DNA of 64,000 nt from positions 1-64,000 of the forward strand of contig JBDHWW010000015.1 of the NCBI GenBank assembly GCA_039810425.1. The letters run 5' to 3'. The translations under genes and the position numbers were made by a program. Positions 29,109 to 45,862 of this stretch are shown here, in pieces; positions within the stretch are counted from its first letter, which is position 1, and each line of letters begins with the position of its first letter. Under the pieces are notes generated by a model that saw only the letters and a list, made by a program, of their open reading frames with translations, ran no database searches and had not been told where the DNA came from. This DNA comes from Pseudobdellovibrionaceae bacterium (GTDB taxonomy: Bacteria; Bdellovibrionota; Bdellovibrionia; Bdellovibrionales; Bdellovibrionaceae).

Positions 29109-30437
29109 TTACTCTTCCTCTGGCTTTTCTTTTTCGGGTGCCGGAGGAGTTTCTTTTTCTGGATTTACTCGCGTTGAAACGTCGAGTTTGGTTTCCATTG
29201 AAAACCCACCCTGACCAAATCTCGAAACCGCAACTTCGGCAGGATCTAACACCCCTCGGTCTAGGTACACGGCGTCTGCCTGGGAAACCTTGACCCGCAC
29301 ATCGGCCTCTTCCTTTTCATCAAGTTGCCATAGGGGTTCAAATTCGATTTCTAAGCTCTCTATCGCCCCACGGTTGAGTTTTCTTGTCAGGTTGAGGATC
29401 TTAGGCGCTAGGTACTCTTGGCGCTGGGAATCGACAAAATCATACCAAGCCAAAACGGTCGAGTTTCCGGTTGCATTTGAACCGACTGGACTTTCGCCCA
29501 AGAGCTTCGTGTGCGGAATATCCGTCTGCGCAACGAGATTGTCTGCCGAGGCTCTTAGAAGCTCAGGCATTCCGGTGACGGTGCGGGATTTTTCTTCGTA
29601 GGTTTCAGACTCGTCGATAATCAAAGAACGAATGACTGATTTTGAATAATTAGCCAGCTCAATGCGTTCCCGAATTTGATCTTCTTTTCCTGCGGCGACG
29701 AGCTCCGCGAGGTTGCGCATTTTAAAAACGCCCACGTTAAAATCTTGCAAGATCGCTGATGCAGCGTCGTGACTCGTTTGAAAGTTACGGAGGGAATTAA
29801 AAGGCTTTGTGAGAACGGAATCATGCCAATAGCCATTCTGGATAAAGAGTCTTCTCGGAAGAATAGCCCCGTTAAAAATCTCAAGCCGCGAGGCATGAAT
29901 GACAAGCGAGTTGAGTGAACTCGAAACGCTTTGTTGAAGATTGAGCCTATATTTTGTCGGAAGGCGAAAGTACGGAGAAAAAGGATTCATGTCGATGGAA
30001 CTAAAATCGGCCTGAAGTTCAAAACGGCCAAGAACCTGAAGTCCAGTGACCTCTTCCGTTTCCAGCATGGGTTCTTCCATGCGACTGCTTCCGCGACTCA
30101 AATACAGAATGGCTGAACCGCCATATTTTCGGGCCTGCTTCCAGGCCTCAATAATTTTCAGACGAGCGCCAAGTTCTCTGATCCGCTTCGCATAGGCATC
30201 TGAGTCCTTTTGTGAAATTCCTTTGTACGACCATTTTTTGCGACACGCTTCTTCGGGAAGTAAATTGACGATTCTCGTCGCCAATCCATCGGAGGCGTAG
30301 AGGTGCTCAAAAAAAAGTTCATCGTGATGAGTCCAAAATGCTTCCGACGAAGTTCTTTTGTCTTTTCCTCGAACGCCTAAGCCTGTGATTAAGTTGAGCC
30401 AGCCATCAAGTCTGGCAACGAAGGTTCTACGATCCAT
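29109..30437 (-). CDS. Portal protein (DUF1073-like)
   Basis: IHASRL, DIPHTKLLGESP.G.NATG, F.PLWQ motifs. Confidence 0.9.
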   Translation of the reverse strand: MDRRTFVARLDGWLNLITGLGVRGKDKRTSSEAFWTHHDELFFEHLYASDGLATRIVNLLPEEACRKKWSYKGISQKDSDAYAKRIRELGARLKIIEAWKQARKYGGSAILYLSRGSSRMEEPMLETEEVTGLQVLGRFELQADFSSIDMNPFSPYFRLPTKYRLNLQQSVSSSLNSLVIHASRLEIFNGAILPRRLFIQNGYWHDSVLTKPFNSLRNFQTSHDAASAILQDFNVGVFKMRNLAELVAAGKEDQIRERIELANYSKSVIRSLIIDESETYEEKSRTVTGMPELLRASADNLVAQTDIPHTKLLGESPVGSNATGNSTVLAWYDFVDSQRQEYLAPKILNLTRKLNRGAIESLEIEFEPLWQLDEKEEADVRVKVSQADAVYLDRGVLDPAEVAVSRFGQGGFSMETKLDVSTRVNPEKETPPAPEKEKPEEE

Positions 30438-30468
30438 GAGATCATTGAATATCGGGCCTTCAAAGAGA

Positions 30469-30557
30469 TCACCGCTTAGTCTTCAACGTGTTGAAGAGAT
30501 GACAGTGACAAAGATATTTAAAGTCGTTGTCTCGTTGAACGGAAGTTCACCGCTTAG
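30469..30557 (-). promoter_or_regulatory. Late-gene motif upstream of the portal
   Basis: TCACCGCTTAGTCTTCAAC 30469-30487, IR TCTTCAAC-gt-GTTGAAGA, second TCACCGCTTAG 30547-30557. Confidence 0.65.
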
Positions 30558-30657
30558 GACATTCAAAAATAGAATTATGGAGGATTCTCCGAGAGGATTT
30601 TGAAAGGGGTCCTTTTATAAAGACCCCAAGATCTGAGGTCTTTATATTCTTCAACTA

Positions 30658-31416
30658 TCACTTATTCTTTTTTGCCGCGTAGTTTCTCATGATGTCCTCG
30701 CAGGCTTTTAAGTCGTCAGCATTAAGTTGGAATGTCGATTTGCCATTGATCTGCTTTTCAATAAGTTCAAAAAGTTCAAAGTCGATAAATGGAGTGACCT
30801 TTCCTGATTGATATTCACGTTCTTTTTCTTCATAAAGGCCATCAAAGGTGCGGTCACGGAACCAGGACTGACGATTTTGCTCCTGAAGTTTCTGTTGTTT
30901 GTCTTTGCTTGGGTGACGCTCTAGGAACTCAAAGAACATTCCGCTGGCTTTCATTCCAGGAAAGAACCACTCGCCACTGAATACCTGAATCAAGTCTTCT
31001 TCAGCGTCATTTAAAATTGGGGTCACAAAGTTCACGCCCAAAGAAAGTGCGTGTTCGTGGAACGAAATCAGATCCGGTGTTCTGAGCGCAATATGTTGCC
31101 AATGGGCTGCGGCCTGATGCCCGTCGAGCATTTCTCTAACGTGGGATGGACGAGACTGCGGCTCCGAGGGTTGAACGACAGCCACAATTGTATTCATCAG
31201 CTCGCGCGGAGTTTCGTCAGCCTTTCCGATCATAAGGGCATAAGTCATGGATTTTTCGCCCTGACCTTTTTCCCACTCTTTGCGTTTATCATAGAGGATG
31301 TCCGCAGCTTGCACTCCGAACACCACGCGAAAAATCGCATAGGCCACCGAATATAGGCGCGGCTGAAGAAGGAGCGTCATGTGATCGACTTGAAAATTTA
31401 AGTATGGCTGTTTCAT
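30658..31416 (-). CDS. VOC-superfamily protein resembling the C-terminal domain of 4-hydroxyphenylpyruvate dioxygenase
   Basis: VDHMT, WQHIALRTPDL, LIQVFS, FFEFLER, FDGLYEEKERE (His-His-Glu triad). Confidence 0.7.
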   Translation of the reverse strand: MKQPYLNFQVDHMTLLLQPRLYSVAYAIFRVVFGVQAADILYDKRKEWEKGQGEKSMTYALMIGKADETPRELMNTIVAVVQPSEPQSRPSHVREMLDGHQAAAHWQHIALRTPDLISFHEHALSLGVNFVTPILNDAEEDLIQVFSGEWFFPGMKASGMFFEFLERHPSKDKQQKLQEQNRQSWFRDRTFDGLYEEKEREYQSGKVTPFIDFELFELIEKQINGKSTFQLNADDLKACEDIMRNYAAKKNK

Positions 31417-31664
31417 TTAGTTTCCTTTCAAAAACATAGTTATTTAAACCCGAAGATAAAATGTGGGTTTTTGGACCGAGCTACCTTATCACCGAGAGTG
31501 CCTTGAGTGAATACGAGGCGCGCCATCAAATCCCCCAAATTTCCGAGGGAAATCAGTAAGAAAGCCCAACGGATAGGCTGGCGAGTTTCGTTTCGAGTTG
31601 CCCAATTTTGCAATCTTTTTGCCTGATTTTGCTTTCACCAAAGGATTGACGCCGTTATCTCTTT

Positions 31665-31686
31665 ATAGTATAGGGTACTATACTAT
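31665..31686 (+). promoter_or_regulatory. CsoR/RcnR-type operator palindrome
   Basis: ATAGTATAG-ggta-CTATACTAT perfect 9-bp IR around a G tract, overlapping the start codon; TTGACG at 31646. Confidence 0.7.
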
Positions 31687-31957
31687 GCACACAATTAGAG
31701 ACAAGAAAAAAGTAATTACAAGAATAAAGCGAATCCAAGGGCAATTGTCGGCTCTCCAAAACTCTATCGAGGCCGAGGAAGATGATTGCTACAAAGTCAT
31801 GCAGCTTCTTGCTTCGTGCCGTGGCGCTCTAAATGGCCTCATGGGTGACATCGTAAATGGACACATCAAAGACCACATTGTCCTAGCTTCAAATAAGCAG
31901 GATGCGGCAGAGGCTGGAGACGAGCTGATCCAAGTCTTAGGTAGCTTTTTAAAATGA
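31685..31957 (+). CDS. rcnR: RcnR-like Ni/Co-responsive repressor (CsoR/RcnR family)
   Basis: MHTIRDK..., RIKRIQGQ; His2, Cys35, His60, His64 match the RcnR ligand pattern. Confidence 0.8.
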   Translation: MHTIRDKKKVITRIKRIQGQLSALQNSIEAEEDDCYKVMQLLASCRGALNGLMGDIVNGHIKDHIVLASNKQDAAEAGDELIQVLGSFLK

Positions 31958-32025
31958 AAAATACAGCGCACCCAAAACTGGGTTCAGATCAATAACGAAA
32001 GTCAGAAAACTTTAGAGGATTAAAT

Positions 32026-32337
32026 ATGGGGAACGACGAACAATCAAAACATGAACATCATCACACATCTGAAGCACTCACGCTTCTACGATTATCACTC
32101 AAGAATTTAGAAATGGCCGATGAAATGCTCGTTAATGGAAAGCCATGCGTTGAAGTTGTGAGACGGCTTTCCGGCGTCGTGTCGCTGCTGATTGAATGTA
32201 AAAGTTTGGTTGCAAACGATCACTTGCTGTCATGTGTGCAATCTGCTCTCAAGCCAGGTCAGGAATCGGTGATAAACGAACTCAAAATACTTGTTAGCGA
32301 GTTATCAACTTCAGCCAGCAAGGGTTCACACCATTGA
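32026..32337 (+). CDS. Divergent CsoR-family protein with His-rich N-terminus
   Basis: Cys41, His66, Cys70 fingerprint; lacks RxxRxxGQ. Confidence 0.6.
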   Translation: MGNDEQSKHEHHHTSEALTLLRLSLKNLEMADEMLVNGKPCVEVVRRLSGVVSLLIECKSLVANDHLLSCVQSALKPGQESVINELKILVSELSTSASKGSHH

Positions 32338-33677
32338 GCACGAAAACTTGGTCACTCTCTTCAAAGTTATTGATTGGACGACTTCTCACGAGATCTGGTG
32401 ATCAAGCTTGGGATTTTGCGGTTCCGTTAGCATTGTTAAGTCTTGTTCCCGGCGAGGTTCGAGTTGCAGCTCTTTACTATCTTATTGTTCGTCTGTTTTT
32501 AGTGGTGCTACTTCCGAGAATTACAGCTCTCATTGATGAAATGAATCGTTTGCGAGCAGCAAGACTAGGAATATCGTTGCAGTTCATTGGTGTTTTACTC
32601 GGAGCGATTGCATTTTTCGCTCTTAGTTACTTTAAATCGCAGTCATTGACTGTTTCCAGCCCGCAAATTATCGGAGCTTTTCTGGTGCTTCTCTTCGGAG
32701 GAGTGTTGAGCAGTTTCGGATCAAATTTCATGGATATCGCAATTGCAAACGATCTTGTTCCGTCAGGAATTAGCGAAGCTGAGTTGGCCGCATTCAACAG
32801 TCGCTTTAGACAAGTTGATCTTTTCACCGAGGTGGCGGCTCCAATTGCTGCGGGATTTCTTTTGGTGATGGGATCTTCTGATCTGCCAATGCTGGGATTT
32901 TACCTCGTTGCACTTTGGAATCTGATTTCATTTTTTCCAGAGTATGGAATTTTGACTTCGATATTTCACGAGCGTCCCGACTTGTCCGAGAAGCGTATTG
33001 CCGTCAGTAAGAGTGCGAAAGTTTCTTTCCTAGAAAAGCTCACCGGAGGATGGCGATCATTCTTTAGAGAACCTGTCGCCCTGGTCGTCGCCGCTTATGC
33101 AATTCTTTGGCTTTCTGTTTTAAGTCCGCATGGAGTTTTACTCACGGCCTTTCTAAAGGATGGCTGGAAATTGCCGGAGTGGGAGATCGGATTGTTTCGC
33201 GGATTGGGTGCTGTCTTTGGTTTAGCAGCTACCGTCATTTTCCCATTCGTTGAGAAAAAAATCGGTCTTATCCAAAGCTCAAAATCTTTCGTTATTTATC
33301 AGGCCATCACCGTTGCAATTGCCTTGGCCTTTTTCTTTTCCGATTCTCGAATGGGGCAGATTGGATTTCTGGCTTTTATATTGCTATCACGAATCGGTGT
33401 GTACGGATTCGGCTTAGGTGAAATGCAAATTCGTCAACTGGGGATTCGTCCGAGCGTTCGCGGAGAGGTAAACGGATTCGCAAGTGCTTTGACCGGCATT
33501 GCGACGCTCGGACTTTTTGCATCGGGCGTTCTCCTGCCTTCCACAAACGACTTTGTTTATCTCATCATCGCATCAGTCGTATTCGTGGTTTTGGCTGCAC
33601 TGGTTTTTAGCTTTTGGGCATGGCGAACGAAGGACAAAGCATTCTTGGGAGTGGAACATGAAGCGGCTCGTGGATAG
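32334..33677 (+). CDS. Bacterial ferroportin (SLC40/FPN1 family MFS divalent-metal exporter)
   Basis: GRLLTRSGDQAWDF, WNL.SF.PEY, LWLSVLSPHGVLL, EIGLFRGLGAVFG match my recollection of Bdellovibrio bacteriovorus Fpn. Confidence 0.9.
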   Translation: MSTKTWSLSSKLLIGRLLTRSGDQAWDFAVPLALLSLVPGEVRVAALYYLIVRLFLVVLLPRITALIDEMNRLRAARLGISLQFIGVLLGAIAFFALSYFKSQSLTVSSPQIIGAFLVLLFGGVLSSFGSNFMDIAIANDLVPSGISEAELAAFNSRFRQVDLFTEVAAPIAAGFLLVMGSSDLPMLGFYLVALWNLISFFPEYGILTSIFHERPDLSEKRIAVSKSAKVSFLEKLTGGWRSFFREPVALVVAAYAILWLSVLSPHGVLLTAFLKDGWKLPEWEIGLFRGLGAVFGLAATVIFPFVEKKIGLIQSSKSFVIYQAITVAIALAFFFSDSRMGQIGFLAFILLSRIGVYGFGLGEMQIRQLGIRPSVRGEVNGFASALTGIATLGLFASGVLLPSTNDFVYLIIASVVFVVLAALVFSFWAWRTKDKAFLGVEHEAARG

Positions 33678-33758
33678 CTACATAGTGCGTTCTGTCATTG
33701 TGAGACGTTTTGCAATTCCCGTTGCGATGCCAAACGCTTAGGTTTAAAGTAGGATGTT

Positions 33759-34148
33759 GTGAAATTCTTGATAATTCTCACTTTTTTAACGATGCAGGTC
33801 ACTTCTGTGGGTGGCCTTGATTCTCTTTTTGGAGTCTATGCCTCTGCTTCGACAGAAGGACATCATCAACATCCTGCTGAGCTAAACGAACACGAAAGTG
33901 AAAGCACGGAACACGGTTCTACGGAGAACTACTCTCACGAACATACACACAGTCATGGACCTGGGGAGCCAGAACATTCTCACAGCCACCAGCACTCATT
34001 TCCAAATGCCCAACAATCGTTTTGCACGTTCCGCGATACCATTCTTCTTGAAATGGCTATCAGTACCTCGCTGAGCTTGTCTTCTGCTGAAGACCTTGAG
34101 CATCCAAGCCCTTATCTTGGATCTCTCTTCAGACCTCCAATTGTCTAA
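33759..34148 (+). CDS. His-rich secreted CzcI-like leader protein ending in FRPP
   Basis: Signal-like N-terminus, HxH repeats, C-term PSPYLGSLFRPPIV. Confidence 0.7.
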   Translation: MKFLIILTFLTMQVTSVGGLDSLFGVYASASTEGHHQHPAELNEHESESTEHGSTENYSHEHTHSHGPGEPEHSHSHQHSFPNAQQSFCTFRDTILLEMAISTSLSLSSAEDLEHPSPYLGSLFRPPIV

Positions 34149-34271
34149 AAAAACACGTCTTCAGATCGCGTTAGCTGGCCCAATTTTGCCATCATAGGCA
34201 CTGCTGCGTCCTAACGGCGTCACAACAAAATTCAAAATTAAAACAGCAGCACTTTGCTGCGAAAGGTATTT

Positions 34272-35522
34272 ATGTCGGCGAGACTACTTTTGTCTCTATG
34301 GCTAGGAATGCTTGGCGCGCCAGTATTTGCCCAGACGCAAACTCAAGCTTGCCAAGCTCTATCCAGCTATAAGGACGTTCTTCAGTGTGCTATTCAGAAT
34401 CATCCGAGCACTCAACGATCAAGACTGGTGCTCGACCAGAACCAAAATTTGACCGGCGTTGCGGAGCAAATCCCAAACCCTCAAATCAGCACCCAGATTC
34501 TGTCTGGCAAAACTAATAGCGACGAACGCGTTGATTACACGCAAGTCAATTTAGCACAGCCGTTCGAGTTAGGTGGCAAGCGCGGGTCTCGAATAAAAAA
34601 AGCGAAAGCATTGGTCGAAGTGAGCGAGATAGATCTTCAGCTTACTCAAGAGGAGATATATTTAAGGACGTATCTCTCCATGATTAGATTGCGACAGATC
34701 TCAGAAGAAATTGAGATTTACGACGACGCTTTGTCCACCTTCGAGAAAATTCAAAAACAGTATCGCTCACGCCCTCGCATGACTCCTGAACAACGTGCGA
34801 CGTATTCAGTTCTGGACATTGCAGCTAGTGACTATCGGGTGCGCCGACAGCCGCTTGTGCGCGAAGCGCGAGTTCATGAACGATTCCTTGAAATCGCAGT
34901 TGGACGAAGACTTGATGTTCGCAGAGACTTCTATCCCGCACGTCGCAAAGACTGGCCGAAAATTTCAGATGGAACTGAAGAAGCTAATTTGAAAAGTGCC
35001 GCGATCAGAAAATCTCAAGCAGAGGTTGAGGTCGCACTGGCCGAACTTGAGTCTGCAAAAAGCCTTGCTTGGCCGGACCTTCAAATCGGACCTACTTTTG
35101 AAACTCAGTCGCAAGGTAGTCAACGCTATCAACAACTAGGCGTTAATATCAGTTTCGCAATTCCCATTTTCAATCTCAACGGTGCAGGAAAATCATACGC
35201 AAATGCTGGCGTCTCGGTCGCAGAAGCTACTGCCACGGCTACAGTGCGGGAAGAACGCAACGAACTAAACCTAAATCGTCAGACCTATGAGGAAATTGTC
35301 CAGCTACTCAAATCCACAATTTCCGCATCTGACCTTCAACGCAAACACAGAGAAGTCGAATCGTCCTTTGCTAATGGCATTGTCCCGAGCTCACTCATCA
35401 TCGAAATTCATCGGCAATTGGCTGACTACACTCGAAGCGTAAATGAACAAGAAACATCAGCAATTGAAGCACTGGCAAAAATCTACTCAGTTCAGGGTCG
35501 CTTGCTTTCGGAGGGACTATGA
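34272..35522 (+). CDS. TolC-family outer membrane factor (CzcC-like)
   Basis: Signal peptide; PNP, QPFELGGKRGSR, PDL.IG, IPIFNLN motifs. Confidence 0.85.
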   Translation: MSARLLLSLWLGMLGAPVFAQTQTQACQALSSYKDVLQCAIQNHPSTQRSRLVLDQNQNLTGVAEQIPNPQISTQILSGKTNSDERVDYTQVNLAQPFELGGKRGSRIKKAKALVEVSEIDLQLTQEEIYLRTYLSMIRLRQISEEIEIYDDALSTFEKIQKQYRSRPRMTPEQRATYSVLDIAASDYRVRRQPLVREARVHERFLEIAVGRRLDVRRDFYPARRKDWPKISDGTEEANLKSAAIRKSQAEVEVALAELESAKSLAWPDLQIGPTFETQSQGSQRYQQLGVNISFAIPIFNLNGAGKSYANAGVSVAEATATATVREERNELNLNRQTYEEIVQLLKSTISASDLQRKHREVESSFANGIVPSSLIIEIHRQLADYTRSVNEQETSAIEALAKIYSVQGRLLSEGL

Positions 35523-35941
35523 GATTCAAAATCTATTTACTGCCGTTTTCTATTTTTATTGGCTTTAGCTTTTCCCACGCCCAGTCACCTGAAGGAGTCG
35601 AGGGTTTCAGAGCTGGTCCAGCTCTCGCAGTTCAAGAGGCCAATCTTAAAGACGGATTTAGACTCAGTGATAAAGCAAAAGAAGTCATTGGAGTGAAAAC
35701 AAAAAAACTCGGCACAAGACCATTCTCAATTTCGCAATCTTCAATTGTTCACTACGGCGATAAAGCAGGTGTTTACCGATACCGCGATGGCTGGTTCAAA
35801 CTTATTGAAGTTCAGATACAAAATAAATCTCAGGCTGTTGAAATCTCCAGCAGCGAACTTCGTGACAATGATGAAGTCGCAGTTCAAGGCGTCGCTCTCC
35901 TGCGGGTGAGTGAGATGGACGCTTTCGGGGGTGAAGAATGA
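35519..35941 (+). CDS. Miniature CzcB-like periplasmic adaptor (membrane-proximal part only)
   Basis: 140 aa at the czcB position; LS....IGVKT N-segment joined to V.I..VEI....L...DEV.VQG..LL C-segment. Confidence 0.6.
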   Translation: MRFKIYLLPFSIFIGFSFSHAQSPEGVEGFRAGPALAVQEANLKDGFRLSDKAKEVIGVKTKKLGTRPFSISQSSIVHYGDKAGVYRYRDGWFKLIEVQIQNKSQAVEISSSELRDNDEVAVQGVALLRVSEMDAFGGEE

Positions 35942-38900
35942 TAAGCCGAATCATAGCATTTTCAATTTATAATAGAATGGCCGTGCTTGCTATTACGGTG
36001 GGGATCGCTATTGCGGGTTGGATCACCTTTGAGAATTTGCCGATCGACGCAGTTCCAGACGTTACGAACAATCAAGTTCAAATCAACACCGAGGTCGATG
36101 GTCTTTCACCAGAAGAGACGGAAAAGAATGTCACCTTCGTGATCGAAACAGCCATGAGAGGGCTCGCTGGGGTCAATGAAGTGCGCTCACTCACGCGCTT
36201 CAATCTCTCGCAGGTTACAGTCATTTTTGAGGACGACGTTGACATATATCGAGCACGTCAGCTTGTAAGCGAACGCCTGCAATCTGTTTCCGGCTCTCTG
36301 CCGGCAGGCATTCGTCCTGAACCTGGCCCTATCAGTTCCGGCCTTGGTGAAATCGTTCACTATTCCGTTGAAGCGGAGAAAATTGAAAGCGGAGACAAAC
36401 GCCTTGAACAGTTGATGGAAATGCGAACGATCCAGGAATGGTATGTGAAGCCGAGACTTCTGACCGTGAAAGGTGTTGCGGAAGTAAATACCATCGGCGG
36501 ATTCGAGAAGCAGTTTCACATTCAGCCGGACACGCAAAAGATGGCGAGATACGGAGTTCAGTTCTCCGAGATTATAGATGCAATCGAGCGCACTAATAAA
36601 AATCTGGGCGGCGGATATGTTCAGCAAACCGGAGAACAGTTTCTCGTTCAGGCGGTCGGACTTCTTCAAGACATGGAGGACATCAAGTCAGTACCTTTAA
36701 AGTCTCTTGAAAACTTTAAAACAATCACCATCGGAGATGTCGCCAACGTCAGACTAGCGACTGAGCTTCGATCTGGTGCGGGACTTGTTCGAGCACGAGA
36801 AGCCGTAGTTGGCACCGTGATGATGCTCATGGGGGAAAACAGCCGAACAGTTGCTATTCGAGTAGCGGATCGCCTTAAGGAAGTTCAAGAGGGAATGCCA
36901 AAAGGTTATAAGATCGAGACCCTTTACATTCGCTCAGATCTTGTGAGTTCTACCATTGGAACAGTTGAGCATAACCTTTTAACGGGCGCATTTCTTGTCA
37001 TCGTGGTTCTTGCTCTGCTGATGGGTAACATCCGCGCTGCAATTATCACGGCAGTCACCATTCCACTTTCCCTTCTGATCTCATTTATCGCGATGAGATA
37101 TTTTAACATTTCAGGGAACTTGATGAGTCTCGGTGCCCTCGATTTCGGGATCATCGTTGACGGAACTGTTATCCTCTTGGATCACTGCGTTCGGGTTATT
37201 CAAGATCGTTCAACCGCGCTCAAGCGAACTCTCACAAAGGAAGAACTTCAGAAAGCCATTTACGATGCCACAGTTCACATTCGTACTGCGGCGGGATTCG
37301 GACAACTTATCATCGTTGTGGTTTTCCTACCTATTTTTTCACTTGTTGGCGTTGAAGGTAAAATGTTTCGGCCAATGGCTGCGACCTTCATTATCGCTAT
37401 TGTCGCGGCGCTAATTCTGTCCTTCACGACCGCACCAGCACTCGCAAGCATTTTGATGACAGGAAAAGTAGTCGATAAAGAACCTTGGCTGATGAGAAAG
37501 CTAGAGAAACTTTACGCTCCAGTCTTGGCGTTTGTTCTTCGGCACCGTCTTGCAACCGCAGGTGTCGGCCTTGCAGCCACTGTTTTAGGAGCAGTTCTTT
37601 TCATGCGCTTAGGGGGCGAGTTTCTTCCTCAGCTCGACGAAGGAACGCTTCTTGTTCAGACAACTCGTCCGGTGAATGTCAGCATTGATCAGTCAGTCGT
37701 GCTTCAGGCAAAAACCGAGGAAATAGCTTCAGATTTCCCCGAGGTCGCATTTACTTTCTCGAAAATCGGCACTTCTGAAATTGCAAATGATCCGATGGGC
37801 GTCAACCAAGCGGATACATACGTGATCTATAAGCCAGAGAAAGAGTGGCCGCTGATCGAGGGACGTAAGCGAACTCGCGCGGAAGTTGCCAATGCGATTA
37901 TCGAAAGACTTGATGCTGAATTACCAGGTCAATCGGTTCTCCGTAGTCAGCCGATTCAGATGCGCTTCAACGATCTTCTTGAAGGCTCCAAATCCGATGT
38001 TTCCGTGAAGCTTTACGGTGATGACATGGCAACGCTTTCGTCGATCACAAAACAAATTGCCGCAATTGTAGAGAAAATTGAAGGTGCGGGAGAAGTTGAA
38101 ACTGAGCTCCGCGGAACTTCACCTCTTTTGCGTGTGACGCCAAAGAAAGATGTTTTGCGGTCAATGGGCATTCCTACTCAATCCGTTCTACAGACAGTGG
38201 GTGTTGCACTTGGTGGCGCAGAAGCTGGAATGCTCTATCAGGGCGAACGACGATTTCCAATTTTTGTGCGCTTAAGTGAAGATCGACGATCTGATTTAGA
38301 TGCGATTCGTGGCCTTCCCGTGGGGTATGGAAACAATGCCACCGCACCTTTAAGCGAACTGGCCGACATTAAATTTGAAGAAGCCTACGGAACTATTGTC
38401 CGCGAAGATGGAAAACGTCGCGCAGCAGTTCTTATCAATCCTCACGGAAGAGACACTGAGAGTTTCGTCAATGAGGCGCGCGCCGCCGTGGAAGCCCAGA
38501 TTAAATTGCCTGAAGGCTATTACATCGAGTGGACCGGAACATTTAGGAATCTTCAGACGGCTAAGTCGCGTTTGATGCTCCTTGCACCGTTAGCACTGCT
38601 TCTGGTTCTTATGATGATCTACGCCGCATTTAAGAGCATCGGCGAGACGCTGCTTATCTTCGTTTGCGTACCGATGTCCTTGGTCGGTGGAGTTTTAGGA
38701 CTCATGCTGAATGGGCTTCCGTTCAGTATCACGGCGGGCGTTGGCTTCATTGCGCTTTCGGGAATCGCTGTTCTAAACGGCGTCGTTCTCGTGAACTACT
38801 TCAATGAGCTCCGAAAAGAAAATCTCGGCGCGCATGAAGTCGTGACTCGCGGTGCGCTTCTCCGACTGCGGCCTGTTTTGATGACGGCTCTGGTGGATAT

Positions 38901-39084
38901 TTTTGGATTCTTACCAATGATGATCTCTACTGGAATTGGTGCCGAAGTTCAGAAGCCGTTGGCGTCGGTCGTAATTGGCGGAATTGTTTCGTCAACACTT
39001 CTCACGCTGCTCGTACTACCTGCACTCTACCTAGCTTTCGAACGTCACTTTAAATTTAACAACAATGAAACAAGTCACCTATAG
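35938..39084 (+). CDS. czcA: CzcA/CusA-family heavy-metal RND transporter
   Basis: LPIDAVPDVT, MSLGALDFGIIVDG, RLRPVLMTA, GAEVQKPLA. Confidence 0.93.
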   Translation: MISRIIAFSIYNRMAVLAITVGIAIAGWITFENLPIDAVPDVTNNQVQINTEVDGLSPEETEKNVTFVIETAMRGLAGVNEVRSLTRFNLSQVTVIFEDDVDIYRARQLVSERLQSVSGSLPAGIRPEPGPISSGLGEIVHYSVEAEKIESGDKRLEQLMEMRTIQEWYVKPRLLTVKGVAEVNTIGGFEKQFHIQPDTQKMARYGVQFSEIIDAIERTNKNLGGGYVQQTGEQFLVQAVGLLQDMEDIKSVPLKSLENFKTITIGDVANVRLATELRSGAGLVRAREAVVGTVMMLMGENSRTVAIRVADRLKEVQEGMPKGYKIETLYIRSDLVSSTIGTVEHNLLTGAFLVIVVLALLMGNIRAAIITAVTIPLSLLISFIAMRYFNISGNLMSLGALDFGIIVDGTVILLDHCVRVIQDRSTALKRTLTKEELQKAIYDATVHIRTAAGFGQLIIVVVFLPIFSLVGVEGKMFRPMAATFIIAIVAALILSFTTAPALASILMTGKVVDKEPWLMRKLEKLYAPVLAFVLRHRLATAGVGLAATVLGAVLFMRLGGEFLPQLDEGTLLVQTTRPVNVSIDQSVVLQAKTEEIASDFPEVAFTFSKIGTSEIANDPMGVNQADTYVIYKPEKEWPLIEGRKRTRAEVANAIIERLDAELPGQSVLRSQPIQMRFNDLLEGSKSDVSVKLYGDDMATLSSITKQIAAIVEKIEGAGEVETELRGTSPLLRVTPKKDVLRSMGIPTQSVLQTVGVALGGAEAGMLYQGERRFPIFVRLSEDRRSDLDAIRGLPVGYGNNATAPLSELADIKFEEAYGTIVREDGKRRAAVLINPHGRDTESFVNEARAAVEAQIKLPEGYYIEWTGTFRNLQTAKSRLMLLAPLALLLVLMMIYAAFKSIGETLLIFVCVPMSLVGGVLGLMLNGLPFSITAGVGFIALSGIAVLNGVVLVNYFNELRKENLGAHEVVTRGALLRLRPVLMTALVDIFGFLPMMISTGIGAEVQKPLASVVIGGIVSSTLLTLLVLPALYLAFERHFKFNNNETSHL

Positions 39085-39093: not shown

Positions 39094-39852
39094 ATGAGAC
39101 AACTAATTTTCTTATTAACGACAATTCTAGCGAGTTCCAGCGCATGGGCGCATGGAATTTCAGCCGCAGATCGAGCCGCAATGCTTAGCGGTGGATATGG
39201 AAAGTATGTCTGGCTTGGAGCCAGTCACATGCTGACTGGTTACGATCACTTACTGTTTATTTTTGGGGTCATATTTTTTCTAACGTCTTTCAGAGACATT
39301 GTTAAATTCATCAGCGTGTTCACGTTCGGACACTGTATCACTTTGGTTTTTGCGACCTTCTTTAAGATCACCGCGAACTACTATCTGATTGATGCCGTTA
39401 TCGCACTCAGTGTGATGTACAAAGGTTTCGAGAATATCGACGGATTTAAAAAGTTCTTCGATTGGAAGGCTCCTAGTCTTTTGAAGATGGTCTTTTTCTT
39501 CGGTCTTATTCACGGTTTTGGTCTTTCGACAAGACTACAACAGCTCCCCCTGGGAGATGACAGTTTCCAGATGCTGTTTAGAATCCTCTCGTTCAACGTC
39601 GGAGTTGAGATCGGGCAAATCGTGGCTCTTACCGCAATGCTGATACTACTTAGCGGCTGGAGAAAAGCCGCTGCCTACATGAAGTTCGCAAAAGCTGCGA
39701 ATGTCGGGCTGATCGCCGGAGGAGTTTTTCTGTTCTTCATGCAGTTCCACGGATACTGGCATGGATCTGATCCAGATGCTTTTCCGTTGAATCGTGACGA
39801 TCACTCTCACGTCCATCAAGACATGCAACAAGAAGAAACGAACACTCATTAA
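39094..39852 (+). CDS. HupE/UreJ-family Ni-binding membrane protein
   Basis: AHG, HMLTGYDHLLF, FTFGHCITL, FGLIHGFG, FNVGVEIGQ. Confidence 0.88.
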   Translation: MRQLIFLLTTILASSSAWAHGISAADRAAMLSGGYGKYVWLGASHMLTGYDHLLFIFGVIFFLTSFRDIVKFISVFTFGHCITLVFATFFKITANYYLIDAVIALSVMYKGFENIDGFKKFFDWKAPSLLKMVFFFGLIHGFGLSTRLQQLPLGDDSFQMLFRILSFNVGVEIGQIVALTAMLILLSGWRKAAAYMKFAKAANVGLIAGGVFLFFMQFHGYWHGSDPDAFPLNRDDHSHVHQDMQQEETNTH

Positions 39853-39886: not shown

Positions 39887-40231
39887 ATGAAAATCGTAGC
39901 ATTGTTACTAGCACTAGGTTGTGCCCAATACACTTGGGCTCACGGAGAACATCCACCGCAAGTGGCGAAGTGCCAAAAAGCGAAGGCATGTACTGAATCT
40001 GAAGTTCTGGCAGGAGCTGAATCGGCAATCAAATTGATCGCCGCGAAAGATCCTAGCAAAGCCAGCTTCGCATCAGTTAAGCCATCGAAAGCGGAGCTTC
40101 GTGATTTTGCAAAGGGCAAAGAATGGGTCGCAACTTTCAATAGCGAAAGTCAGCCCGAAGGAAAGAAATCCCTATTTGTCTTCATCACACAAGATGGATA
40201 CCTGAATGGTTCCAACTTCACGGGCAAGTAA
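39887..40231 (+). CDS. Secreted small protein (DUF6488-like)
   Basis: AGGAGG SD; signal peptide + HGEH; EW...FN...L.VF...G......NFTG. Confidence 0.65.
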   Translation: MKIVALLLALGCAQYTWAHGEHPPQVAKCQKAKACTESEVLAGAESAIKLIAAKDPSKASFASVKPSKAELRDFAKGKEWVATFNSESQPEGKKSLFVFITQDGYLNGSNFTGK

Positions 40232-40251: not shown

Positions 40252-40287
40252 TCCTCCGCTCCGCGATGATTTTCGCGGAGCGGAGGA
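40252..40287. terminator. Perfect 15-bp hairpin closing the czc operon
   Basis: TCCTCCGCTCCGCGA-tgattt-TCGCGGAGCGGAGGA. Confidence 0.7.
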
Positions 40288-40630: not shown

Positions 40631-41455
40631 ATGAAAAAGCTTGAATCCGCTTCGCCCGATTTTCCAACTAGGAATTTCGGTCCTCCTGGAATTGTCACAG
40701 GAGGCATCTTAAATTTTTCTGCGGACATGGTATCAAGAACCCCGCGCACTCACACGGGCCAAGTTCTTATACTTATTCGCTCTGGCGTGATAGGTTACGT
40801 TTTTCAGAACGAGTACCACGTCGTTTCGGCAGGCATGATGATTTTCATTCCTGCCCAATCTCATTATTTTGAACTGTCTTTCAGAGTTGATGTCCTGGCT
40901 TGGCACATCAATATCCCTGTCGAAAAATCGGTAAGAAAACACTGTTTGAGTCCTGAGATTTTTAAAGCACGACCGCTTATCGAGGGCTTTTGCGAGAAGA
41001 TCGTCAGTGCGAAGTTGTCGTCAGCGGACGAAAAAGATTCAACTTTGAAAAGACTGGTTATGGCTTTCATGGATGAACTGGATTGTTCCGAGCCCATCCG
41101 TCATTTAGTTATTCCGGTTCCAAAGTGTCCAAAAATCTTTGAAGTTGCGCACGAAATTTTGATGAGCCCAGGTATCAAGGAAAATATTGATTACTGGGCT
41201 AAGAAGTCCGGGATGTCGAGACGTACCTTTACCGACAGATTTCTTAAAGAGATGGGTTTGTCATTTGTTGCTTGGAGAAAGCGCGTACTTCTTCAGGCAT
41301 CTTTGATTCATTTATCACAGGGGCGAAATGTAAAAGAGATTGCGGACCTATTGGAGTTTTCAACTCCAAGCGCCTTCGTCAATTCGTTTCATAGTCAGTT
41401 TGGTGTTTCACCAAAAAGCTATCTGAAAAAGGAGATCAGGTCCTTGGGAAAGTAG
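40631..41455 (+). CDS. AraC-family regulator (cupin + double HTH)
   Basis: GMSRRTFTDRF..EMGLSF..WR; F.TPSAF...F....GVSP. Confidence 0.9.
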   Translation: MKKLESASPDFPTRNFGPPGIVTGGILNFSADMVSRTPRTHTGQVLILIRSGVIGYVFQNEYHVVSAGMMIFIPAQSHYFELSFRVDVLAWHINIPVEKSVRKHCLSPEIFKARPLIEGFCEKIVSAKLSSADEKDSTLKRLVMAFMDELDCSEPIRHLVIPVPKCPKIFEVAHEILMSPGIKENIDYWAKKSGMSRRTFTDRFLKEMGLSFVAWRKRVLLQASLIHLSQGRNVKEIADLLEFSTPSAFVNSFHSQFGVSPKSYLKKEIRSLGK

Positions 41456-41457
41456 CC

Positions 41458-41859
41458 CTATGAACTTTGCCGGTTTTCAGAAATATCTTCGAGAATCGGA
41501 CACGTTGGCCTGTCGTCACCGTGACAGTGTTTTGCGAGGTTAGATAACGTGTTTTTGATCGCTTGAAGGTCTTGGATTTTTTCTTCCAGAGCCTTGATGT
41601 GGGTCATGGTCATGCTCTTAACTTCGGAACTTGCTCGTGAGCGGTTTCGCCAGAGGCTCACAAGTTTTTTGATTTCCTTCATGGAAAAACCCAAACTTCG
41701 AGAGCGTCTGACGAACGTAAGAATGTGAACGTCATTTTCAGAATACTTCCTATAGCCGGACTCCGACCGGCTGGCTTTAGGGATGATTCCGATTGATTCG
41801 TAGTGACGAATCAATTTTGCATTTACACCGGAGGCTTTCGCCGCTTCACCTATATTCAT
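41458..41859 (-). CDS. cueR: Cu(I)-responsive MerR regulator CueR, copy 1
   Basis: MNIGEAA..SGV..K.IRHYE; CHGDDRPTCPIL metal loop. Confidence 0.92.
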   Translation of the reverse strand: MNIGEAAKASGVNAKLIRHYESIGIIPKASRSESGYRKYSENDVHILTFVRRSRSLGFSMKEIKKLVSLWRNRSRASSEVKSMTMTHIKALEEKIQDLQAIKNTLSNLAKHCHGDDRPTCPILEDISENRQSS

Positions 41860-41865
41860 AATTTA

Positions 41866-41896
41866 AGTTTAAACCTTCTAATTATTGTAAGGTCAA
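41866..41896 (-). promoter_or_regulatory. CueR-type promoter of cueR1 (leaderless)
   Basis: TTGACC-19-TAAACT, dyad ACCTT...AAGGT, 6 nt to ATG. Confidence 0.75.
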
Positions 41897-41959
41897 GGGG
41901 TTGACCGCAACTTCAGTCAGAGAATGGTTAGATTCTCCCGCCGCATTGTATCTATCCTA

Positions 41960-42385
41960 TCAGTGACCGCCGTGACCCTCGTGAGAGTCTGTCGATTTCG
42001 ACGAACCCTCAGATCCGTGCAGCGAAGGATCTTTCATGTATTTCTCAAAGTTCTTTTTGTTCGCAAAGTACATCACATCTCCTGCGTCGTTTGCGGCGAT
42101 GATAGCCGTGGCTTTATCGACCGACTTTTTCGTAAGCGGGTCAGTGGCCGTTCTTGCGGTTTTATCTTCAGAGAGAGTTTTCTTGCAGTTGTCGCAACAC
42201 CCGTAATAAGTTTTGCCGCTCACTTTCACGGGAATTTGTGGCTTACCGAAGTGCTTTTCCGTGACCATGCACACAGTTTCATTCGGAACAACTTTCCAGC
42301 TCATGTCGTGCCCCTGATGGGGCGACTGGGCAAATGCAGTTGCCGAAACGAATACTGAGAATAAGAGTGTCGTGATTGCTTTCAT
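41960..42385 (-). CDS. Secreted YHS/TRASH-like metal-binding protein
   Basis: Signal peptide; VCMV, YYGCC..C, DP.T...VDKA; His-rich tail. Confidence 0.75.
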   Translation of the reverse strand: MKAITTLLFSVFVSATAFAQSPHQGHDMSWKVVPNETVCMVTEKHFGKPQIPVKVSGKTYYGCCDNCKKTLSEDKTARTATDPLTKKSVDKATAIIAANDAGDVMYFANKKNFEKYMKDPSLHGSEGSSKSTDSHEGHGGH

Positions 42386-42475
42386 ATTTTTTTCCTTTTC
42401 TTTTAGGTTAAAGTTCTTCTTTTCTAAATTGAATCCATTTTCTAATTTGAAACTCCTCGCGCAGTGCAAGAGCCC

Positions 42476-44803
42476 TTAGAATTGATATTCAAAGCCAGCC
42501 CCTAAACTATCATTCGTCAGCATCAATCCGGCAGCCCATTCCCATTTCGGTGAATACATCAAAGAGAGCTCAAATTCCGTTTCGTGTTCGCCCCCTTGAT
42601 TGTCCGGTCGCCATGTAAACTCAAGCTCCGAAAACACCGTCTTCGTCCATTGAAATTCGCGCTCAATATCCAATCGAAATTTCCCATCATGATTCACTAA
42701 TAAATTCGTCTCGATCATCATCGGAAGAAAATGTCCGATACCAATTACGCCGTGAGTTTTTTCTCCGTAGGATGTTCCCCCCACGATGAGATTCGTCCAA
42801 TTATTAAACCAACGACGGTAAAAGACATCGCCTTCGTAGTCCCATTCATCCTTGAAGTTATAATCAAAGTTTTTGCCTTTGATATTTGCGCCTTCAATGC
42901 GAGCAGAAAACTCATTCCAGGCTTGAGAGATTCTGAAGTTTCCTTCCATGTGGTTAGAGGAAAGTTCCACGCGGCCGTAATTGAACCAAGGGTCCATGCG
43001 ATGATGATCGTGCTTATCGTGTTCGGCCATTTCGCCCTCTAACGCGAAATTTGAGTATTTAACGACTCTAGCCATACCTGTATCCATGTGGAAGAGGTTG
43101 TGGCAGTGGAGCATCCATTGTCCGACTTCATCAGTGTAAAACTCAATTGTGCGCGAACCCATTGGAGGTACGTCCACGGTATGTTTCCAAGGCGAATAAG
43201 TTCCGTTTTCATTGATGACGCGGAAGAAATGGCCGTGCAAGTGCATCGGATGGTGCATCATGCTGTCGTTCTGATAAGTGATGCGAACAATCTCTCCTGG
43301 ATTCACTGTAAGCAAGCGATCCTCGGAAATCGTTTTTCCATTGATGTGCCATACATAACGTCTCATATCACCGTTAAGAACAAGCTTAAGATCATGGACC
43401 TTCGCGTTTTTTGGGAAATTGATCGGCTCCAACGCCTTCAGTTTATCAACGCTCAATTGTTCGATGACCTTCCCTGATGCCATCGTCATTGGAGTGGCTT
43501 GAGCGCCTTTCATATCGTGACCAGAGTGATCTTCTTTTGCTGGGGTGGATTTCTTGGGCTTAGATTCAGAGTGGTCCATGCTTTTCATTTTCGAGTGATC
43601 CATCCCTTGCATTTTGCTATGGTCCATTTCGCCCATTTTGGAGTGATCCATCTCCTTCATTTTAGAATGGTCCATGTCTTTCATCTGACTATGATCCATG
43701 CCTTGCATCTTACTGTGATCCATACCGCTCATTTTCGAGTGGTCCATTCCACCCATCGCAGAGTGATCCATGCCGGACATATCGTGGTCCATCGTGGCGT
43801 AAAGATCTGGCTTAGGAACATCCTTTGCGAAAACCTTTTCACCCATACCGATGAACGTAGATGCGTAACCAGTTCCGTCTTGGCAGGTTGCGCGCAACTC
43901 GTAATTTTTATGCTCAGGCACCGTGAAAAGTACGTCGTAGGTTTCAGCCATGCCCATCAGAATTTCATTTGTCTGAATAGGTTCAATGTCTATTCCGTCC
44001 GAAGAAATGACCGTCATCGGCAATCCTCCTAACGAAACCTGGAAATAACTTGAAGCGGCCGCATTGATAATTCTGAGACGAATGCGCTGTCCTGGGTGCG
44101 CTTCCAAAAGTTGTGACACGGGTTTACCGTTAATCAAAAATGCGTCGTAGCCAACGTCTGAGAGGTCCATGCCCCCCATGCGTGTCCACTCGTTTTTGAA
44201 TTGGTTCATGAGCTTTCCTTCTTTGATGGCTTCAAAGTAGGATCGCATGGTGCCTTTTTTATAAAGATAGTAGTCGCCATCTTTTTTGAGATTGCGAAGA
44301 ATATGATCGGCGTTTTCATCCGACCAGTCGCTCAAAACAACGACGGCTTCTTTATCTACTTTTATCGTTTCTTTTTTTGGATGAATGACGATGGAACCAA
44401 AGACACCTTTTTGTTCCTGAAGCATCGTGTGAGAGTGATACCAGTAGGTTCCGTTCTGGCGAATTGGAAACTTAAACGTACGAGATTTTCCTGGATAGAT
44501 CGGCGGAGTGTTTACGAACGGAACTCCGTCCTCAAGCGGCGGCAAAAGAATGCCGTGCCAGTGGATTGAAACGTCTTCGTTGGAGTTTTTAAGCTCGTTT
44601 TTGACCGTGATTTCAGCATCATCTCCCTCAGTAAACTCTAACGTTGGCGCAGGAATCCCGCCGTTTACGGTGAGCGCAAAGTCCACGGTCTTTTTTCCAC
44701 TCATGTTGACGGGTTCATTTCTGATCGTCAGTTCATAGCGAACGGTCTTTGCGAAAGACGAAAGCGGGAGAATCATCAAAACAAATAACAACAAACTTTT
44801 CAT
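42476..44803 (-). CDS. Multicopper oxidase with Met/His-rich insert and C-terminal beta-barrel-like extension
   Basis: [25 protein letters not shown] copper motifs; ends GFEYQF. Confidence 0.92.
43568..43792 (-). repeat. Ten MDH(S)xMxx units (~24-nt period) inside the oxidase
   Basis: [23 protein letters not shown] ... MDHSE. Confidence 0.9.
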
Positions 44804-44811
44804 AAAATTTC

Positions 44812-45297
44812 CTATTCGAGTCTTTTCAAGATGGTTTTCATTTTCTCAATTTCGTCATGTTGTGCCTTGATAATATCGGCGCAAAGGCTTTTTAGCTCTG
44901 CGTCTTCAAGCTTACCTTCCTGACACATCAAGATCGCGCCTGAGTGGTGCGGGATCATAGAGCGGACAAACTGTTTATCCCCAACGAATGTCTGCTGACG
45001 GATGAAAATAAAAGACAGTACGAAAATCAAAATCGAAACGCCGGAGAGTGCAGCGTTTAGCTTTTTGTTTGGATACATTTCCTTCATCAGAAGAATCATT
45101 ATCACAACAGAAGGAGCGACCATCCAAAGCGTCATGTAGAGCGCATTAACGTTCATGAAAATGCTGCTGGCGGCATCAACCATCAGAAAGTTCATCCCGT
45201 ACATAAAAGCAAAATGCAGGATGGTCATCAGGGCGAGACCCGTATAGGGGTTTAAGCCTTTGTGCTGTTGATGCGAATTGTGATTGCCGTGTTTCAT
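44812..45297 (-). CDS. DUF305-family (CopM-like) membrane protein
   Basis: [15 protein letters not shown]...L...II.AQ..EI..M. Confidence 0.85.
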
Positions 45298-45321
45298 GTC
45301 ATCCTCGTTGGTTTTGTGGTT

Positions 45322-45714: not shown

Positions 45715-45720
45715 GATTCC

Positions 45721-45751
45721 AGCGTAATCCTTCCAATAGTTGGAAGGTCAA
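45721..45751 (-). promoter_or_regulatory. CueR-type promoter of cueR2 (leaderless)
   Basis: TTGACC-19-TACGCT, dyad CCTTCCAA-N3-TTGGAAGG, 6 nt to ATG. Confidence 0.78.
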
Positions 45752-45831
45752 GAGGGCTCTGCATGAACATGGCGCAACATATTGAAACAGCGCGTAAATT
45801 CTCGGAAGATTACAATTCTTTGGATAGTCTA

Positions 45832-45862
45832 TTGACCTTCCAATGCTTGGAAGGTGCAGAAT
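45832..45862 (+). promoter_or_regulatory. CueR-type promoter of copA
   Basis: TTGACC-19-CAGAAT; ACCTTCCAA-tgc-TTGGAAGGT perfect dyad. Confidence 0.85.

Follow-up and report, generated by a model that had tools for sequence, protein, structure and literature searches.

The stretch of DNA analyzed here, called the window, comprises positions 1-64,000 (64,000 nt) of contig JBDHWW010000015.1 from a Pseudobdellovibrionaceae bacterium (GCA_039810425.1). Its subject is a run of nine genes, all on the forward strand, in which a ferroportin-family transporter follows two repressors of the DUF156 family. The first repressor is of the RcnR/DmeR type and has 90 amino acids (aa) (31685-31957; PF02583, 70.8 bits, E 1.3e-19), and the second has 103 aa (32026-32337; PF02583, 26.4 bits, cut-off 22.8). 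The ferroportin has 447 aa and a TTG start (32334-33677; PF06963, 211.6 bits, E 2.1e-62). A putative promoter (31646-31674, forward strand) and a putative operator palindrome (31665-31686, no strand assigned) lie at the head of the run. The ferroportin is followed by a 129-aa His-rich secreted protein with the C-terminal end FRPPIV (33759-34148), which has no Pfam family and matched CopL_fam weakly (20.6 bits, cut-off 40), a CzcC/TolC-like outer-membrane factor (34254-35522; PF02321, E 1e-20), a 140-aa protein in the CzcB position, here termed the mini-adaptor (35519-35941; no Pfam or NCBIfam match), and a 1048-aa heavy-metal resistance-nodulation-division (RND) permease of the CusA/CzcA family (35938-39084; TIGR00914, 1189.9 bits, cut-off 701; PF00873, E 1e-276). 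The last two genes encode a HupE_UreJ_2 membrane protein (39094-39852; PF13795, 170.7 bits, E 2.4e-50) and a DUF6488 protein (39887-40231; PF20098, 38.4 bits, cut-off 27), for which the ATG at 39887 was picked by eye as the probable start of a frame open from 39794.

The stop codon of the second repressor gene overlaps the TTG start of the ferroportin gene, and the remaining gaps in the run are at most 105 bp. Just past the DUF6488 gene lies a terminator-like hairpin with a 15-bp GC-rich stem (40252-40287, no strand assigned), the sole strong stem of this kind within 31.6-40.3 kb. Therefore, the nine genes from the RcnR-type repressor to DUF6488 probably form one unit that ends at this hairpin. 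The palindrome, the RcnR-type gene, the CsoR-like gene, the ferroportin, the Czc-type pump and the HupE/UreJ gene named in the initial annotation were all confirmed in place. Judging from sequence and gene context, the unit would be a metal-inducible efflux operon with ferroportin as its inner-membrane exporter; nickel and cobalt efflux is its best-supported role, and we lean slightly towards it.

The ferroportin match spans profile positions 6-430 of 430 and far exceeds the curated cut-off of 24.6 bits; the gene is the sole PF06963 match in the 3.54 Mb genome. The protein aligned with the ferroportin of Bdellovibrio bacteriovorus (BbFPN, PDB 5AYM) over residues 8-431 (E 6.5e-104). The motifs TRSGDQAWDF, WNLISFFPEY and SPHG, which the initial annotation had quoted, are all present in the translation and represent the BbFPN metal sites. 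According to the 5AYM alignment, T19, D23, N196, S199, F200 and H266 of the window protein are the counterparts of BbFPN metal-site residues, and the columns of T19, D23, N196, F200 and H266 were invariant in 16 aligned bacterial ferroportins. The metal in BbFPN is described as coordinated by Thr20, Asp24, Asn196, Ser199 and Phe200 (PMC4633820), while His261 is named as a metal-site residue of the C-lobe (PMC8232785).

Transport of Fe, Co, Mn and Ni was reported for BbFPN in liposomes, and its N-lobe site was revealed in an Fe2+-soaked crystal (PMC4633820). These two observations favor an Fe(II) exporter like vertebrate ferroportin, a reading that we consider highly improbable. No iron-related gene or iron regulator adjoins the ferroportin in the window, nor was one seen among the nearest genes scanned in the 28 related loci described below. 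None of the DUF156 members named in the papers cited here is an iron sensor. The Aspergillus homologue FpnA is reported to confer resistance to nickel, cobalt and gallium but not to iron, and is described there as having no role in iron handling (PMC11890741).

The assignment to nickel and cobalt depends first on the regulator at the head of the operon. Counted on its translation, the first repressor carries H2, D34, C35, H60, D63 and H64. It thus combines the PF02583 fold with an N-terminal X-His and the H-C-H-H fingerprint, which is given as common to RcnR and DmeR (PMC7055735). The ligands listed for Escherichia coli RcnR are the N-terminal amine, His3, Glu34, Cys35, Glu63 and His64 (PMC7055735); the carboxylate ligands Glu34 and Glu63 are present as Asp in the window protein. 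Its N terminus is one residue shorter than that of E. coli RcnR, and the mature N terminus would be X-His as in RcnR provided that Met1 is retained. RcnR was the best NCBIfam match (79.5 bits, equivalog cut-off 138), followed by FrmR (71.5 bits, cut-off 133). Both scores were under the equivalog cut-offs, therefore the first repressor is called RcnR-like and not an RcnR orthologue. Formaldehyde sensing by an FrmR-type protein requires Pro2, which forms a methylene bridge with Cys35 (PMC5146963). Residue 2 of the window repressor is His, and a formaldehyde sensor of the FrmR type was rejected.

The putative operator reads ATAGTATAG-GGTA-CTATACTAT, with 9-nt arms separated by 4 nt; an alternative reading is a GGGTAC core flanked by AT-rich arms of 8 nt. 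It occurred once in the window even when 3 mismatches were allowed, and no match was obtained in 100 shuffles. The palindrome overlaps the -10 element, itself read by eye, and also the first repressor's ATG. The probable sigma-70-type promoter, read by eye, consists of TTGACG (31646-31651), a 17-nt spacer and TATAGG (31669-31674). A consensus promoter scan did not list it because the scan rule requires T as the last -10 position. With the start codon 10 nt past the -10 element, the mRNA would be nearly leaderless. In two loci of the surveys described below, L048 and L049, the promoter layout was the same (TTGACT, 17 nt, TATACT, 10 nt, ATG) and a homologous site, CATAGTATA-CTCCCC-TATACTATG, lay over the ATG. 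The AT-rich arms of 8-9 nt are kept in these loci, while the cores (GGGTAC in the window, CTCCCC in L048 and L049) are shorter than a G6 tract. The operator type described for RcnR, FrmR and DmeR is AT-rich inverted repeats around a G/C tract (PMC5016687, PMC7055735).

The second repressor carries C41, H66 and C70, corresponding to the x-C-H-C ligand pattern given for CsoR and InrS (PMC7055735). It is His-rich at its ends, with HEHHH near the N terminus and SHH at the C terminus. Homologues of this repressor adjoin ferroportin in L072, L132, L077, L078 and L055, and the two-regulator arrangement of the window is shared by L072 and L132. Through this protein, copper could be the main switch of the operon, or nickel the sole one, with ferroportin as a part of the copper response of the surrounding genes. 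The ligand pattern and the translational coupling of this gene to ferroportin fit such a switch, as do the two CueR genes, the multicopper oxidase, CopM and CopA encoded nearby and the regulators adjoining ferroportin in the genus Bdellovibrio, which match the copper sensor RicR best. However, Cu(I) efflux is already served by CopA, and His-rich ends would fit nickel or zinc better than Cu(I). InrS shares the x-C-H-C pattern but senses nickel (PMC3320959, PMC4235346), and the ferroportin site, made of hard O/N ligands, was shown to bind divalent ions (PMC4633820). We therefore judge a copper-led switch to be quite unlikely.

To place the nickel/cobalt assignment in a wider context, the gene neighborhoods of bacterial ferroportins were surveyed, as the initial annotation had suggested. 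The first survey covered 401 genomes sampled from the phylum, and PF06963 was found above cut-off in 28 of them, including the window's own genome. The 27 other genomes gave 28 loci (loci are designated by L numbers), in which the two nearest open reading frames (ORFs) on each side, 106 proteins, were scanned. A PF02583 gene adjoined ferroportin in 18 of the 28 loci. Sixteen were detected by Pfam and two (L036 and L053) by tblastn, with 89-99% identity to Pfam-positive regulators. These 18 loci span 6 of the 12 ferroportin-bearing genera; since 14 of the 28 loci came from one genus, the counts are not independent. The second survey, which overlaps the first, comprised 79 loci from a species-representative genome collection. 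A local hidden Markov model built from 19 of these regulators was searched within 1.3 kb of ferroportin. It detected a DUF156 regulator in 28 of the 79 loci, or 28 of 69 evaluable ones, as ten loci had less than 400 bp upstream. All eight proteins that were re-tested with Pfam passed. A CzcA-like gene lay within 3 kb of ferroportin in 21/79 loci and a HupE_UreJ_2 gene within 1.3 kb in 11/79. Literature searches on bacterial ferroportin turned up no paper on its gene neighborhood or on a link to DUF156 regulators.

The strongest pointer to the identity of the metal was the arrangement in L048 and L049, which come from two genomes of another family of the phylum. In both loci an RcnR-like regulator is followed by a cation diffusion facilitator (CDF) and then by ferroportin. 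The regulator is 75% identical to the first repressor of the window and has H3, C35, H60 and H64. The CDF passes the equivalog cut-off of the Co/Ni exporter DmeF (350 versus 250 bits). Thus, the surveys back the nickel/cobalt assignment through the DUF156 linkage and through DmeF in these two loci.

In L031, an RcnR-like-ferroportin pair and an operon encoding the His-rich protein, CzcC, the mini-adaptor, CzcA and HupE diverge from a single 144-bp region with a related palindrome. This divergent gene order recurs in L072, L075 and L132, where the comparison covered gene order only. The arrangement suggests that the two halves belong to one regulon. The genus Bdellovibrio, including the BbFPN-like loci L036, L054 and L056, has another regulator with a C...H-x-x-H-C pattern, whose metal is not readable from sequence; a TATCCCC-N5-GGGGATA site was present in L036, L054 and L056. 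A quick maximum-likelihood tree of 70 rows, from which ten short loci were left out and in which support was given as the SH-like approximate likelihood ratio only, separated the two types. The 12 rows in which the RcnR-like gene is co-directional all fell in the window's half, 11 of them inside a set supported at 95, while all 15 rows with a divergent Bdellovibrio-type regulator fell in the opposite half.

Some ferroportin loci also displayed signs of gene exchange. The gene orf252 of the window (30658-31416, reverse strand) encodes 252 aa without a Pfam, NCBIfam or PHROG match. It is 88% identical to the gene adjoining ferroportin in L048 (9173-9970) and L049 (9266-10063), while the ferroportins themselves are only 52-53% identical, a pattern suggestive of mosaic exchange in the surroundings of the ferroportin gene. 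A protein atlas yielded a weak VOC/glyoxalase lead only. A relationship of orf252 to the Glyoxalase_8 protein adjoining ferroportin in L031 was rejected, as the two were unrelated by BLASTP. Ferroportin was located beside an integrase, resolvase or conjugative coupling protein in L043 (5966-7183), L044 (1234-2055) and L052 (5988-7448), so that elements other than phages may move the gene as well.

The pump genes of the operon comprise a permease of the CzcA family and an outer-membrane factor, as in heavy-metal efflux RND systems. No full-length adaptor with hairpin, lipoyl, barrel and membrane-proximal domains was found; the 140-aa mini-adaptor stands alone in that position. Its AlphaFold model had a mean pLDDT (predicted local distance difference test score) of 80, and the best Foldseek matches were all membrane-fusion proteins (BesA, CusB, SilB, ZneB, AcrA and MexA), over ~60-70 residues and with weak E-values from 6.5e-3. 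From this model, the protein may be an adaptor reduced to a minimum, lacking the hairpin and lipoyl domains. The initial annotation had ferroportin feeding a periplasmic RND pump. This is supported as a recurrent linkage, as seen in the 21 loci with a CzcA-like gene, and not as a functional relay; the adaptor of the pump here has just 140 aa.

A secreted protein of 138-140 aa in the CzcB position is conserved in L031 (11427-11846), L072 (6038-6457), L073 (4027-4446), L075 (6296-6715), L132 (6025-6444) and L043 (13381-13797). In other loci, RND or HupE genes are accompanied by proteins of ~140-150 aa that fell into at least three unrelated kinds, and the structure model was made for the window/L031 kind only. 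A family of His-rich secreted proteins with an RPPI end adjoins HupE_UreJ_2, DUF6488 and RND genes in L044 (4676-5134), L055 (7097-7546), L057 (7151-7573) and L058 (1755-2183).

With a pump of the CusA/CzcA family, ferroportin might instead be a broad exporter of divalent metals (Zn, Cd, Co, Mn and others) in a Czc-type system whose RcnR-like regulator answers to other or several metals. A CDF encoded further downstream is ZitB-like (336.6 bits, under the cut-off of 408), and the regulators of the window's nearest relatives lack Cys35. DUF156 proteins are described as binding several metals in vitro, with specificity set in the cell (PMC4235346, PMC5709419), and BbFPN moved four metals in liposomes (PMC4633820). 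However, the window regulator has the complete RcnR ligand set, and its nearest relative with the full fingerprint is linked to DmeF. The characterized fungal homologue, and the plant ones as cited in the same source, act on nickel and cobalt (PMC11890741). A broad exporter is accordingly rather improbable in our view.

Several observations weigh against nickel and cobalt as the metals handled by the operon. The first repressor is under the RcnR equivalog cut-off with FrmR close behind, and the L048 regulator scored higher with FrmR than with RcnR in NCBIfam. The G/C core of the operator is merely GGG, with no G6 tract. The gene coupled to ferroportin encodes an x-C-H-C sensor, a pattern that also fits copper CsoR, and copper modules are present in the surrounding island. 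The RND set is without a full-length adaptor. No DUF156 gene was nearby in 10 of the 28 loci of the first survey and in 41 of the 69 evaluable loci of the second. The RcnR-like genes of L072, L075, L132, L076, L085 and L095 have Pro, Ala or Glu and not Cys35. These six Cys35-less regulators keep an E. coli-like N terminus (SHTIRD or AHTI..), and may sense metal differently, or sense something else. The regulator of the BbFPN-like loci had the copper sensor RicR as its best NCBIfam match, though at 43 bits this was far under the cut-off. Finally, BbFPN also carries Fe and Mn in vitro (PMC4633820).

The proposal of the initial annotation that the transporter is a nickel/cobalt exporter is thus favored by its context, namely the H-C-H-H regulator with Asp as carboxylates and without Pro2, and DmeF in L048 and L049. 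It is not proven, and the Cys35-less and the Bdellovibrio-type regulators speak against it. These results suggest that bacterial ferroportins export nickel and cobalt, not iron.

If nickel and cobalt are the metals, the operon could work as follows. A tetramer of the RcnR/DmeR-type repressor would bind the AT-rich palindrome, which is present over the -10 element, the transcription start and the repressor's own start codon. Ni(II) or Co(II), coordinated by the N-terminal amine, His2, Asp34, Cys35, Asp63 and His64, would release the repressor by analogy with E. coli RcnR. Transcription would then proceed through the second, His-rich DUF156 sensor and the translationally coupled ferroportin, most likely to the hairpin at 40.25 kb. 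Ferroportin would move cytoplasmic Ni/Co to the periplasm via the conserved Thr/Asp/Asn/Ser/Phe and His sites, all of which are present in the protein. The CzcA-type pump, the outer-membrane factor and the mini-adaptor would expel the metal from the periplasm.

The operon is a part of a multi-metal cargo island of ~20.7 kb with ~18 genes (30495-51217, no strand assigned). It lies between a phage portal gene (29109-30437, reverse strand; PF06381, E 2.5e-69; phrog_146) on its left and a phage large terminase gene (51218-52666, reverse strand; TIGR01630; phrog_38, E 5.8e-107) on its right. The portal gene is 221 bp from the island genes, while the terminase gene abuts the island. Besides the VOC-like orf252 and the ferroportin/RND operon, the island encodes an AraC regulator, two CueR, a TRASH-domain protein, a multicopper oxidase, CopM/DUF305, a CopA ATPase, a ZitB-like CDF and a ClC channel. 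Its copper/zinc module (40631-51061) includes CueR genes above the equivalog cut-off, a 775-aa multicopper oxidase, a 954-aa CopA-type ATPase and the ClC channel that abuts the terminase. The GC content is 46.6% in the island, compared with 49.1% in the structural genes and 49.0% in the genome. Neither a transposase nor an integrase was found among the island ORFs scanned, and no tRNA gene was found in the window.

The surrounding genes belong to a myovirus-like prophage, integrated in a Bdellovibrio-like bacterium and otherwise complete-looking. According to PHROG and Pfam, its left part has an integrase (14-934), a RecE-like exonuclease, a repressor, an endolysin, baseplate, tape measure and sheath, followed by the head modules (major head protein, protease, MuF-like protein and portal). 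Right of the island are the large terminase, a DUF5681 protein, a FolE-QueE-QueD-QueC-transglycosylase set, a ParB-like protein, a resolvase and a DnaC-like loader. Phage genes extend to ~64.5 kb of the 69,367-base contig, with ordinary genes beyond; the contig ends did not overlap when compared with each other. The FolE, QueE, QueD, QueC and transglycosylase-like genes (53149-56256, reverse strand) lie beside the terminase genes, and sets of this type are used by phages to put 7-deazaguanine bases into their own DNA. Among the tail and baseplate genes, a 443-aa protein with matches to RCC1-like repeats (11651-12982, reverse strand) is possibly a receptor-binding protein.

An IMG/VR scan with the terminase yielded nine loci, of which L059 alone was close (terminase 87% and portal 73% identical). 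L059 and the window are homologous up to the terminase stop codon and again from ~60 bp upstream of the portal start; in between, L059 has 2.1 kb of other genes, which encode a DUF4238 protein and a D-2-hydroxyacid dehydrogenase. In the distant relatives L064 and L066, 121-130 bp separate the terminase gene from the portal gene. From these homology limits and short gaps, the island occupies a variable cargo slot of the phage lineage, a placement that rests on the single close relative L059. When 61 genomes of the family were searched, three terminases were recovered, all distant (41-47% identity).

The junction between phage and island was checked in metagenome sequencing runs, designated by X numbers. 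In 12 runs, at least 0.89 of the sampled words of the 10 kb across the left junction were present. Part of this 10 kb was present in 20 runs from 12 studies, or in 11 runs from 8 studies after nine runs flagged as possible sources were removed. Run X16 has a contig of 6,900 bases that matches 29,162-36,061 with 3 differences, and a 486-base contig of run X19 covers 30,190-30,676. Both bridge the portal-island junction at 99-100% identity, therefore an assembly chimera at the phage-island junction was excluded. Nearly unchanged, the combination of phage and island is widespread in metagenomes from sludge, bioreactors, biofilm and estuary. A ferroportin cluster of 99% identity is encoded on 26 contigs. 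The junction data are compatible alike with a circulating phage and with a widespread host strain carrying a fixed prophage.

An island-free form of the phage was not seen in four runs, for which only contig sets covering 20 kb without the right junction were available, so that absence from the contigs proves nothing. An X19 contig joined 21,039 to 30,046, but its shorter side of 25 letters is below the caution line and no interpretation is given. Single loose contig ends occurred at 30,835 (X15) and 30,072 (X19). Runs X15, X18 and X19 (0.46-0.64 of words) were considered as phage-only or island-only forms and rejected, since they had thin, fragmented coverage of both parts in 29-30 of 30 bins.

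The initial annotation had further claimed a phage-borne route for the spread of the family. Of this claim, only the location is established, with the island in the terminase-portal slot and the portal-side junction bridged; the phage itself is no more than a possible vehicle. Searches by tblastn of 50,697 phage records and 72,556 plasmids gave no ferroportin. In IMG/VR, a single-protein scan gave seven candidate stretches, of which one encoded a relative and none was a usable locus, and a scan with the 16-sequence alignment found no relative; both scans rest on few peptide patterns. The marker genes of this phage were found in none of the 79 other ferroportin loci.

The prophage with its cargo is at least 65 kb, in which the 20.7 kb island adds ~47% to a backbone of ~44 kb, while its distant relatives were found on IMG/VR contigs of 39-49 kb. 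Head-size limits make full packaging of the cargo-bearing prophage doubtful. At ~1.5 times the backbone size, spread by the phage is therefore unproven. The island could instead have landed in a resident prophage that is no longer able to package itself, so that the phage is a landing site and ferroportin spreads otherwise. We give this reading an even chance. Besides the sizes and the absence of ferroportin and of the phage markers from the records searched, it is consistent with cargo genes on both strands between terminase and portal. On the other side, all phage modules match PHROGs at full length, and the island has no transposase or integrase of its own. Moreover, the different cargo of L059 in the same slot implies that live phages use it, and the phage-plus-island junction is 99-100% identical in runs of several studies.

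For human ferroportin, BbFPN serves as the bacterial structural model, and the physiological substrate of BbFPN was still called unknown in a 2025 paper (PMC11890741). The window and ~100 related loci include bacterial ferroportins under DUF156 metal sensors and beside metal-efflux pumps. Since promoter, operator, regulator pair and transporter are defined, the purpose of bacterial ferroportin becomes a simple test. What is new here is an RcnR/DmeR-type efflux operon with ferroportin as its likely inner-membrane exporter, whereas that operon type itself was already known. A role in nickel and cobalt handling agrees with findings in a fungus and with what is cited for plants (PMC11890741). The prophage setting, a 20.7 kb multi-metal island in the terminase-portal cargo slot, is of separate interest.

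A more far-reaching reading combines these points. Ni/Co efflux, and not iron export, would be the native job of bacterial ferroportins. In Bdellovibrionota, ferroportin would serve as inner-membrane feeder in a regulon with two sensors (RcnR-type and His-rich x-C-H-C) that also drives a minimal-adaptor RND pump, all within a 20.7 kb cargo still movable between hosts by a temperate phage. As a whole this is conceivable, though we regard it as doubtful. If it is true, and the fungal and plant data are added, Ni/Co efflux may be the ancestral job of the whole ferroportin family. The window ferroportin would then also be the first carried by a phage, and the island an unusually large one for phage-carried metal resistance.

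Among characterized systems, the closest protein is BbFPN (Bd2019 of B. bacteriovorus; PDB 5AYM, 5AYN, 5AYO and 6BTX). Both proteins belong to PF06963 (E 6.5e-104 over 424 residues), and both have the conserved N-lobe site residues, the C-lobe His and an adjoining DUF156 gene. However, the window ferroportin is ~46% identical to those of the BbFPN-like loci (tblastn), and the two lie in opposite halves of the quick tree. The BbFPN-type loci have one divergent C...H-x-x-H-C regulator and no RND or HupE gene nearby, while the window has a co-directional RcnR-type regulator, a pump operon and a prophage around it.

The RcnR-RcnAB system of E. coli, as described (PMC7055735), resembles the window in its H-C-H-H DUF156 repressor with an N-terminal X-His, in the AT-rich inverted repeat with a G/C core for autoregulation, which is predicted for the window, and in its inner-membrane metal exporter. 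The exporter of the window, however, is a ferroportin of the major facilitator superfamily (MFS) and not RcnA. Its regulator has Asp in place of Glu34 and Glu63 and misses the NCBIfam RcnR equivalog cut-off. E. coli RcnR has two TACT-G6-N-AGTA sites, while in the window a single long palindrome overlaps the start codon. The DmeR-DmeF pair of Rhizobium, Agrobacterium and Sinorhizobium is described as sharing the H-C-H-H regulator, the AT-rich inverted repeats and an operon with a Co/Ni exporter (PMC7055735, PMC6044271, PMC9820535). This pair is present exactly in L048 and L049, with ferroportin added. The window has no DmeF, and its first regulator gene is followed by the second DUF156 gene and ferroportin.

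In InrS-NrsD of Synechocystis, a DUF156 nickel sensor is reported to repress the gene of an MFS-type nickel exporter (PMC4235346). InrS is of the x-C-H-C type, like the second regulator of the window and unlike the first. The nrsD gene adjoins RND-type nrs genes, and NrsD is presumably not a member of PF06963. Fungal FpnA and plant IREG/FPN2 are ferroportin homologues for which tolerance of Ni/Co (and Ga), and not iron export, is described as the role (PMC11890741). They differ from the window protein in being eukaryotic, vacuolar or plasma-membrane proteins under unrelated regulation. The island itself resembles phage morons and cargo slots, in which non-phage genes occupy a fixed gap between conserved late genes, and a relative of this phage has other cargo at the same place. 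Morons usually comprise one or a few genes, whereas the cargo of the window is 20.7 kb with ~18 genes, close to half of the backbone size, and encodes multi-metal efflux.

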